NCBI RefSeq assembly: GCF_058153355.1
Contig: NZ_CM177019.1
DNA length: 64,000 nucleotides
Direction: 5' to 3' (one strand)
The position numbers were made by a program, and so were the translations under genes. This document shows positions 19,265 through 19,289 of this stretch, in pieces. Position 1 is the first letter of the stretch; the number at the start of each line of letters is the position of its first letter. The notes under the pieces are model-generated. The model was not told the DNA's origin. It made no database searches and worked only from the letters and a program-made list of their open reading frames with translations.

Positions 19265-19289
19265 AGCGCCGTCAGGCGCTGTTTTTTTC
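19265..19289 (+). terminator. Rho-independent terminator inside the IS right end, oriented against inward read-through
   Basis: AGCGCC-gtca-GGCGCT hairpin followed by GTTTTTTTC on the plus strand, antisense to the recombinase. Confidence 0.55.

Follow-up and report, generated by a model that had tools for sequence, protein, structure and literature searches.

An inward-facing, terminator-like hairpin in the right end of IS621, antisense to the recombinase gene

Two identical IS621 copies between convergent genes

The 64-kb stretch of DNA analyzed here, which we call the window, contains two blocks of 1288 bp (19196-20483 and 31848-33135) that are 100% identical. Each block holds a mobile element with a recombinase gene on the minus strand. 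The recombinase has an N-terminal, RuvC-like DEDD domain (PF01548, E = 1.8e-24) and a C-terminal Transposase_20 domain (PF02371, E = 3.9e-26), and it is 98% identical to a cluster named IS621 family transposase. At the DNA level, the element shares 97.6% identity with the common E. coli IS621 and 99.6% with a rarer variant. By these comparisons the element is a variant of IS621, an IS110-family bridge-RNA recombinase element, with 2–3% substitutions. It has in common with the published IS621 (Choi 2003, Durrant 2024, Hiraizumi 2024) a 326-aa recombinase, a CT core, the target ATCAGGCCTAC in a REP sequence and a split junction promoter. The features of the two copies and the genes that read into them are listed below.

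18489..19189, plus strand: ypfH, reading into the right end of copy 1, with an in-frame TAG at 18716-18718
19199..19200, minus strand: CT core at the junction with the right non-coding end (RE), AG on the plus strand
19201-20478, minus strand: body of IS621 copy 1, with a CT core on each side
19201..19305, minus strand: RE of copy 1, 105 nt, with a clade-specific module of ~95 nt (hairpin, second small hairpin, A tract, -35 box)
19214..19219, minus strand: -35 box TTGCAG of the junction promoter, which forms a promoter only when RE and LE are joined (circle)
19221-19227, minus strand: A7 tract just upstream of the -35 box, read in the joined ends
19231..19246, minus strand: second small RE hairpin, UCYGG-GAAA-CCGGR in sense orientation
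19263-19288, plus strand: terminator-like hairpin (19263-19282) and T7 run (19282-19288) of copy 1, antisense to the recombinase
19306..20286, minus strand: IS621 recombinase CDS, 326 aa, DEDD_Tnp_IS110 and Transposase_20 domains
20288..20464, minus strand: putative bridge-RNA region in LE, assigned from identity to IS621 and Durrant 2024 (PMC11208160); presumed start AGUGCAGAG, 7 nt after the -10 box
20471..20476, minus strand: -10 box TATTAT of the junction promoter, 17 nt from the -35 box after joining through one CT core
20471..20512, minus strand: terminator-like hybrid of the target REP hairpin (20481-20512) and the U-rich element start CUUGUAUUAU
20479..20480, minus strand: CT core at the LE junction, from the reading of the flank
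30749..31792, plus strand: ORF of 347 aa, called ypfG, reading into the right end of copy 2
31853..33130, minus strand: body of IS621 copy 2, identical to copy 1, between ypfG (plus) and tktB (minus)
31915-31940, plus strand: the same hairpin (31915-31934) and T7 run in copy 2, identical to copy 1

The limits of the element were set by reading its flanks against the published CT core and wild-type target (Durrant 2024 PMC11208160). Insertion took place at the canonical REP target, ATCAGGC-CT-AC, with one CT core on each side and without terminal inverted repeats. When the empty site was rebuilt by joining 19050-19200 to 20481-20630, it gave a 100%, gap-free match to the region between ypfH and ypfN in several E. 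coli genomes. Matches of at least 99% to this intergenic region were present in only 18 of 5426 E. coli records, which suggests that the strain comes from an unusual lineage. The flank beyond the left end is a REP/BIME sequence, with a match to Rfam naRNA4 (89 bits) at 20480-20556. This was the sole real match when the element was scanned against Rfam at a permissive threshold, and nothing was returned in the RE. We thus rejected the idea that the RE hairpin is itself a REP/BIME element, as the naRNA4 match is confined to the flank. The LE had no match among 4227 Rfam families, a set of models that may not include a bridge-RNA family.

The LE is near-identical to that of IS621. For the bridge RNA in 20288..20464, the start and the length of 177 nt are those of the IS621 bridge RNA and presumably apply here. 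Circular IS621 has a junction promoter that is split between RE and LE (Durrant 2024 PMC11208160). Joining the two ends of the present element gives TTGCAG, 17 nt and TATTAT, a sequence match to the published circle-junction sigma-70 promoter.

Both copies lie between convergent genes. Copy 1 has ypfH (plus strand) on its RE side and ypfN/dapE (minus strand) on its LE side; copy 2 has, in the same order, ypfG and tktB. We take the ORF at 30749..31792 to be ypfG, by reading alone. An earlier note on this DNA had named ypfH and ypfG as the upstream host genes, correctly: they end at 19189 and 31792, respectively 74 and 123 nt before the hairpin, both on the plus strand and both reading into the right end. 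The in-frame TAG splits ypfH (EDNR*ARVD) into ORFs at 18464-18718 and 18725-19189, and ypfH is probably a pseudogene in the source strain. Given this premature stop, Rho-dependent polarity within ypfH may already lower read-through into copy 1.

The same exposure is seen at other insertions. IS621 insertions number 12,198 in 1,677 complete E. coli genomes, and we compared eight distinct sites, the two here and six sampled from E. coli. At six of the eight, transcription of the right-end neighbor is directed into IS621 (ypfH, ypfG, ilvY, mqo, cmoB and mhpE), and at two it is directed away (kgtP and codB), a small sample that shows exposure and is no test of orientation bias. The right end of IS621 thus appears to be commonly met by incoming antisense transcription, judging from the arrangement of these genes.

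The hairpin and T tract of the right end

The sequence at 19263-19289 on the plus strand reads ACAGCGCC-GTCA-GGCGCTGT-TTTTTTC. It forms a stem of eight perfect pairs, six of them G-C, closed by a loop of 4 nt, well within the range for intrinsic terminators (a G+C-rich stem of 5–14 bp and a loop of 3–8 nt). The first T of the T7 run is the closing base of the stem, and the U tract follows directly 3' of the stem in the RNA. Together, hairpin and T7 have the canonical features of a Rho-independent terminator on the plus strand, antisense to the recombinase. The earlier note had described such a hairpin and T tract about 65 bp inside the element end and in both copies. We find the same: the hairpin begins at the 63rd base of the element, and an identical site lies in copy 2. 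Since the two elements are 100% identical, the two hairpins are not independent evidence. Another 17 nt separate the end of the T run from the recombinase stop codon, so that a transcript terminated here would not overlap the recombinase gene. Read in sense orientation, the hairpin precedes the -35 box by 43 nt.

How unusual is this site? A 38-nt RNA with the hairpin has a folding energy of -15.9 kcal/mol (z = -4.6), a value that was not reached by any of 200 dinucleotide shuffles. A loose terminator scan returned 26 sites against 22.2 ± 4.4 expected, with no overall enrichment. The RE hairpin ranked at the top of the terminator-like sites between 15000 and 34000 in a consensus scan. Under strict criteria (a perfect stem of at least 8 bp with at least five G-C pairs, and at least six T in the next 7 nt), only four sites remained on both strands of the window, two of which are the IS621 RE copies, and 40 dinucleotide shuffles returned none. 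The remaining two strict sites, both on the plus strand, are at 59178-59198 and 60143-60168.

A hairpin is symmetric, and wobble pairs therefore assign no strand to it; the sequences beside it do differ. On the minus strand, the RE hairpin has A7 before it and GUCUGGCA after it. As this tail is not U-rich, the hairpin is terminator-like on the plus strand only. We scored the T content of the tail on both sides of the hairpin in each lineage with a long RE (described below), antisense meaning the strand opposite to the recombinase mRNA.

IS621: antisense tail 4.45, sense tail 0.87
L081: antisense tail 4.01, sense tail 0.28
K. michiganensis (L007): antisense tail 4.50, sense tail 2.16
L092: antisense tail 2.69, sense tail 0.22
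K. grimontii (L008): antisense tail 2.68, sense tail 2.82
Superficieibacter (L019): antisense tail 2.42, sense tail 0.46
Phytobacter (L004): antisense tail 0.68, sense tail 0.83

Five of the seven lineages have the more U-rich tail on the antisense side, three of them strongly. Phytobacter has a poor U tract and Superficieibacter only a moderate one, and a decaying, frameshifted E. coli copy has a broken A/T tract (AAACAAC). A bidirectional terminator was rejected for IS621 on the score of its sense tail, to which only the Klebsiella lineages offer anything near an exception (2.2–2.8).

Occurrence of the right-end module among relatives

Relatives of the element were collected from genomes (80 loci), through protein look-up (5) and by a pattern scan of metagenomes (26). 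In nearly all relatives at 50–83% identity, the gene runs to within 0–12 nt of the conserved terminus ATAACAGTAT-CT and leaves no RE region. The -35 box of these short-RE elements (TTGACN or TTGCGT) lies within the last codons of the recombinase gene. In most relatives (L001, L018, L020-L080) the recombinase stop codon is either the TGA within the -35 box (TTGAC) or the TAA within the terminus (cATAACAG). A homologous insert of ~95 nt, placed after the invariant His321 codon and before the -35 box, is present in seven lineages: IS621, an 82% relative (L081), a metagenomic lineage (L092), Superficieibacter (L019), Phytobacter (L003-6, L089), Klebsiella michiganensis (L007) and Klebsiella grimontii (L008).

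Alignment of these REs showed four conserved blocks, namely the hairpin, the second hairpin (UCCGG-NNN-CCGGA), an A-rich tract, and the -35 box with the terminus. Over the seven lineages, whose recombinases are ~70–100% identical, the hairpin is the best conserved block. The spacer from the stop codon to the hairpin is not conserved. The half-sites ACAGCGC and GCGCTGT are nearly invariant, and loop lengths are 4, 4, 6 and 8 nt. Within the mostly invariant stem there is one double-sided change, from G-C to A-U, in K. michiganensis. Both Klebsiella lineages have also lost the top pairs of the stem and gained two at its base, an outward shift of register. Pairing holds in 86% of stem cells, compared with 81% in shuffles, but an offset of -3 gives as high a covariation score as the true register. 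We therefore dropped covariation as proof of an RNA stem, the test being uninformative and not negative; with a single compensatory change in a mostly invariant stem, conservation by descent is hard to exclude.

A bootstrapped neighbor-joining tree placed the long-RE IS621 group and short-RE elements in one clade with 100% support, and the long-RE Klebsiella/Phytobacter clade outside the IS621 clade with 85% support. In the 100%-bootstrap clade, long (WIN, L114, L081, L019) and short (L001, L057, L084, L085) forms are intermixed. This suggests that the module was ancestral and then lost, or that it was exchanged between elements. By eye, the gene end of long-RE elements (19306-19330 in the window) holds what resembles a vestige of an earlier -35 box and terminus (TTGA..TAACA). 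The module thus has the look of a segment inserted or duplicated within the former right end.

Within E. coli, a 51-nt region spanning the hairpin was found in 1685 records, and in 1214 of these the best copy reaches 99% identity or more. Outside IS621, this region was not found in any of 5426 E. coli genomes. A copy of an E. coli host terminator was rejected as its origin, because the region occurs only with IS621 (1685 records, compared with 2252 that have any IS621 fragment).

Other identities for the RE were also considered and set aside. A small ORF from the RE (19139-19291, minus strand, 50 aa) was rejected on finding that neither its start codon nor its frame is conserved in other lineages. 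A partial duplicate of the LE bridge-RNA gene was rejected because local alignment of RE with LE scores like shuffles in six of seven lineages. Canonical IS621 does share a 13-mer, TGCCTGCAATCCG, between its RE and LE (p about 0.01). A 3' guide RNA, of the seekRNA or bridge-RNA type found in IS1111, was rejected on the same alignments, which are no better than shuffles, and on the lack of an RE in most close relatives.

Possible roles of the hairpin

We lean toward the reading that the hairpin is an intrinsic terminator acting in one direction, that it protects the recombinase and bridge RNA against incoming antisense transcription, and that this would be why it has been kept. That the structure terminates transcription in vivo is a separate and firmer claim, which we consider very probable. 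RNA polymerase arriving from right-flank host DNA, as by read-through of ypfH or ypfG, would transcribe the 8-bp hairpin and U7 and be released at about 19288-19291 (31940-31943 in copy 2). The release point would be ~90 nt inside the element and 15–17 nt short of the recombinase CDS. Neither the recombinase mRNA nor the bridge RNA would then meet a complementary transcript, and no polymerase would collide head-on with the element's own transcription. The insertion displaced the REP region downstream of the host gene by 1.3 kb, and the terminator would give this gene a clean 3' end instead.

The earlier note had gone further than the hairpin itself and proposed insulation of the element from host read-through. 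This part of its account stands in qualified form. It is favored by the terminator features, the U-rich antisense tail in five of seven lineages, the 17-nt gap to the CDS and the incoming genes at six of eight sites. Counting against it, most relatives at 50–83% identity have no RE module and evidently manage; two lineages have a weak U tract or none, covariation is thin, Rho may already limit read-through from the interrupted ypfH at copy 1, and the module folds better as sense RNA.

This last point leads to a different reading, in which the sense strand is the functional one and the hairpin belongs to a structured 3' UTR of the recombinase mRNA. There it would block 3'-to-5' exonucleases or terminate weakly, setting mRNA stability, and the antisense T tract would be incidental. 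The whole RE module gave a more stable fold as sense RNA in all 10 sequences, by 2–17 kcal/mol. The consensus sense fold has an extra long-range helix with U-G pairs, which correspond to A-C mismatches on the other strand. The second hairpin reads UCUGG-GAAA-CCGGG here and UCCGG-GAAA-CCGGA in common IS621. Both substitutions give G-U wobbles in the sense RNA and A-C mismatches in the antisense RNA; here, as in the decayed copy, the variant hairpin retains its pairing on the sense strand alone, by such wobbles. The sense tails of the two Klebsiella lineages, UUGGUGUG and UUGUUGUG, are fairly U-rich as well. However, the difference in energy is weak evidence, because G-rich strands generally fold better anyway. 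The IS621 sense tail is not terminator-like, and a stabilizer needs no abutting A7, whereas A-rich sequence lies directly 5' of the stem in six of the seven lineages. For the hairpin we consider this sense-strand role unlikely; the RE module as a whole may also serve as the recombinase mRNA 3' UTR. Another possibility is that the hairpin is a relic of ~95 nt inserted or duplicated in the old right terminus, possibly a captured terminator of a convergent gene, which maybe still terminates without being under selection. The apparent vestige at the gene end, followed by a second -35 box and terminus, would fit such an origin, as would the order of parts outward from it, where the A tract precedes the hairpin as in a captured convergent terminator. 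The patchy distribution of the module in a fully supported clade also indicates that it is dispensable. Against a relic, the hairpin has stayed intact over ~30% protein divergence, through a compensatory change and register shifts, as the adjoining spacer diverged freely. Its near-identity in most E. coli records and its absence from the rest of those genomes argue in the same direction, and we regard an unselected relic as quite improbable.

Two further readings place the function outside host read-through. In the excised circle, the junction promoter could fire backwards, and the hairpin would end a divergent antisense RNA of ~90 nt before the recombinase gene. Symmetric -10 boxes can fire divergently, and the one here is near-symmetric (TATTAT/ATAATA). 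The antisense strand of the joined RE-LE sequence reads GGGATAATACAAG, then RE, with the terminator ~85–90 nt downstream; the distance from the hairpin to the -35 box is 43 nt. However, no -35 box for a backward promoter was found in the joined sequence, and short-RE relatives share the -10 box with no terminator, which makes a role chiefly in the circle very improbable. Finally, the hairpin might act as DNA, as a palindromic protein-binding site or as a cruciform that aids synapsis or excision. The near invariance of the half-sites is what such a site would predict, but their spacing varies from 4 to 8 bp among lineages and most relatives have no such site. IS621 recombines with a 22-bp donor, and a donor library with 52 bp of RE, in which the hairpin is absent, still expressed bridge RNA from the natural promoter (Durrant 2024 PMC11208160). 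Because these minimal donors work in its absence, a role for the hairpin in synapsis or in the junction promoter is unlikely, and a palindromic binding site was rejected on these grounds and on the spacing; we give DNA-level function almost no credence.

To return to the shielding terminator, the left end of the element may have a counterpart. At the left junction, the whole REP stem-loop is kept upstream of the element and is followed by CUUGUAUUAU, giving a hybrid of -23 to -25 kcal/mol; the same hybrid is found at copy 2 (33123-33164, minus strand). It looks like a terminator that faces sense-direction read-through into the LE, from ypfN or tktB. An analogous REP hybrid was shown to terminate in ISPpu10, where it keeps the integrated element quiet (bioRxiv 10.64898/2026.03.19.712850). 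The right end has no borrowed REP hairpin, which could be the rationale for carrying one of its own. In a more speculative extension, which we think rather unlikely, the ~95-nt module would be an optional 'insulator cassette' of the IS621 clade, acquired once, perhaps as a captured terminator of a convergent host gene, and later lost or exchanged. With the left REP terminator it would seal both sides, leaving the junction promoter of the circle as the sole source of bridge RNA and recombinase.

A terminator that shields a mobile element is a known kind of feature and IS621 a known element, and the RE hairpin of IS621 has apparently not been described. The searchable literature, which did not extend to the original description (Choi 2003), reports no hairpin, terminator or antisense transcript in the IS621 RE. 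One likeness is to ISPpu10, also an IS110 element that targets REP sequences and has a terminator at its edge that stops outside transcription (bioRxiv 10.64898/2026.03.19.712850). Its arrangement of a REP hairpin and a U-rich element start is found at the LE junction of both copies in the window. However, the ISPpu10 terminator is at the left junction, faces sense read-through and is half borrowed from the target, whereas the RE hairpin of IS621, at the right end, belongs entirely to the element and is oriented against antisense read-through. Another terminator-like hairpin inside IS621 is the 5' stem-loop 'brake' of its bridge RNA, which was terminator-like in a two-reporter assay (bioRxiv 10.64898/2026.03.19.712850). 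In contrast to the RE hairpin, to which it is unrelated in sequence, the brake is in the LE (~20429-20461) and on the sense strand.

ISPpu9 is a further REP-targeting IS110 element, in which forms with and without the ssr9 module coexist (NAR 2021 PMC8450116; NAR 2025 PMC12288879). Like the IS621 module, ssr9 is optional, has its own terminator and sits between the transposase gene and a second right-end box. However, ssr9 is a sense sRNA of ~180 nt with its own promoter and left- and right-end boxes, whereas the IS621 module is ~95 nt, has no promoter or left-end box that we could see, and has a terminator that faces the opposite way. More distant elements also limit the effect of transcripts begun outside. 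In IS10 and IS50, the mRNA of read-through sense transcripts folds back and hides the ribosome-binding site. That is a fold-back on sense transcripts, in contrast to an intrinsic terminator against antisense transcripts in IS621.

IS621 is the founding bridge-RNA recombinase and is in development as a genome-editing tool, and its natural regulation is only now emerging. If the shielding reading is true, integrated IS621 would be protected from host transcription at both ends, which would favor a model of activity only as the excised circle. It would also explain how IS621 between convergent genes escapes antisense silencing and limits harm to its neighbors. In practice, the RE hairpin would be a compact natural one-way terminator to heed in constructs that contain native RE-LE fragments. 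It leaves the understanding of IS621 recombination itself unchanged.

Two arrangements of whole elements may be added. In one E. coli record (L120, CUWW11), IS621 lies between the co-directional genes mhpE and mhpT with its right end toward mhpE. If the inward terminator is real, this insertion would be polar on mhpT, should mhpT depend on read-through. The two copies in the window are in direct orientation, 12,652 bp apart, and bracket the genes from ypfN-dapE through ypfG. Recombination between such direct repeats, whether homologous or carried out by the recombinase that the element encodes, could delete or duplicate the interval.
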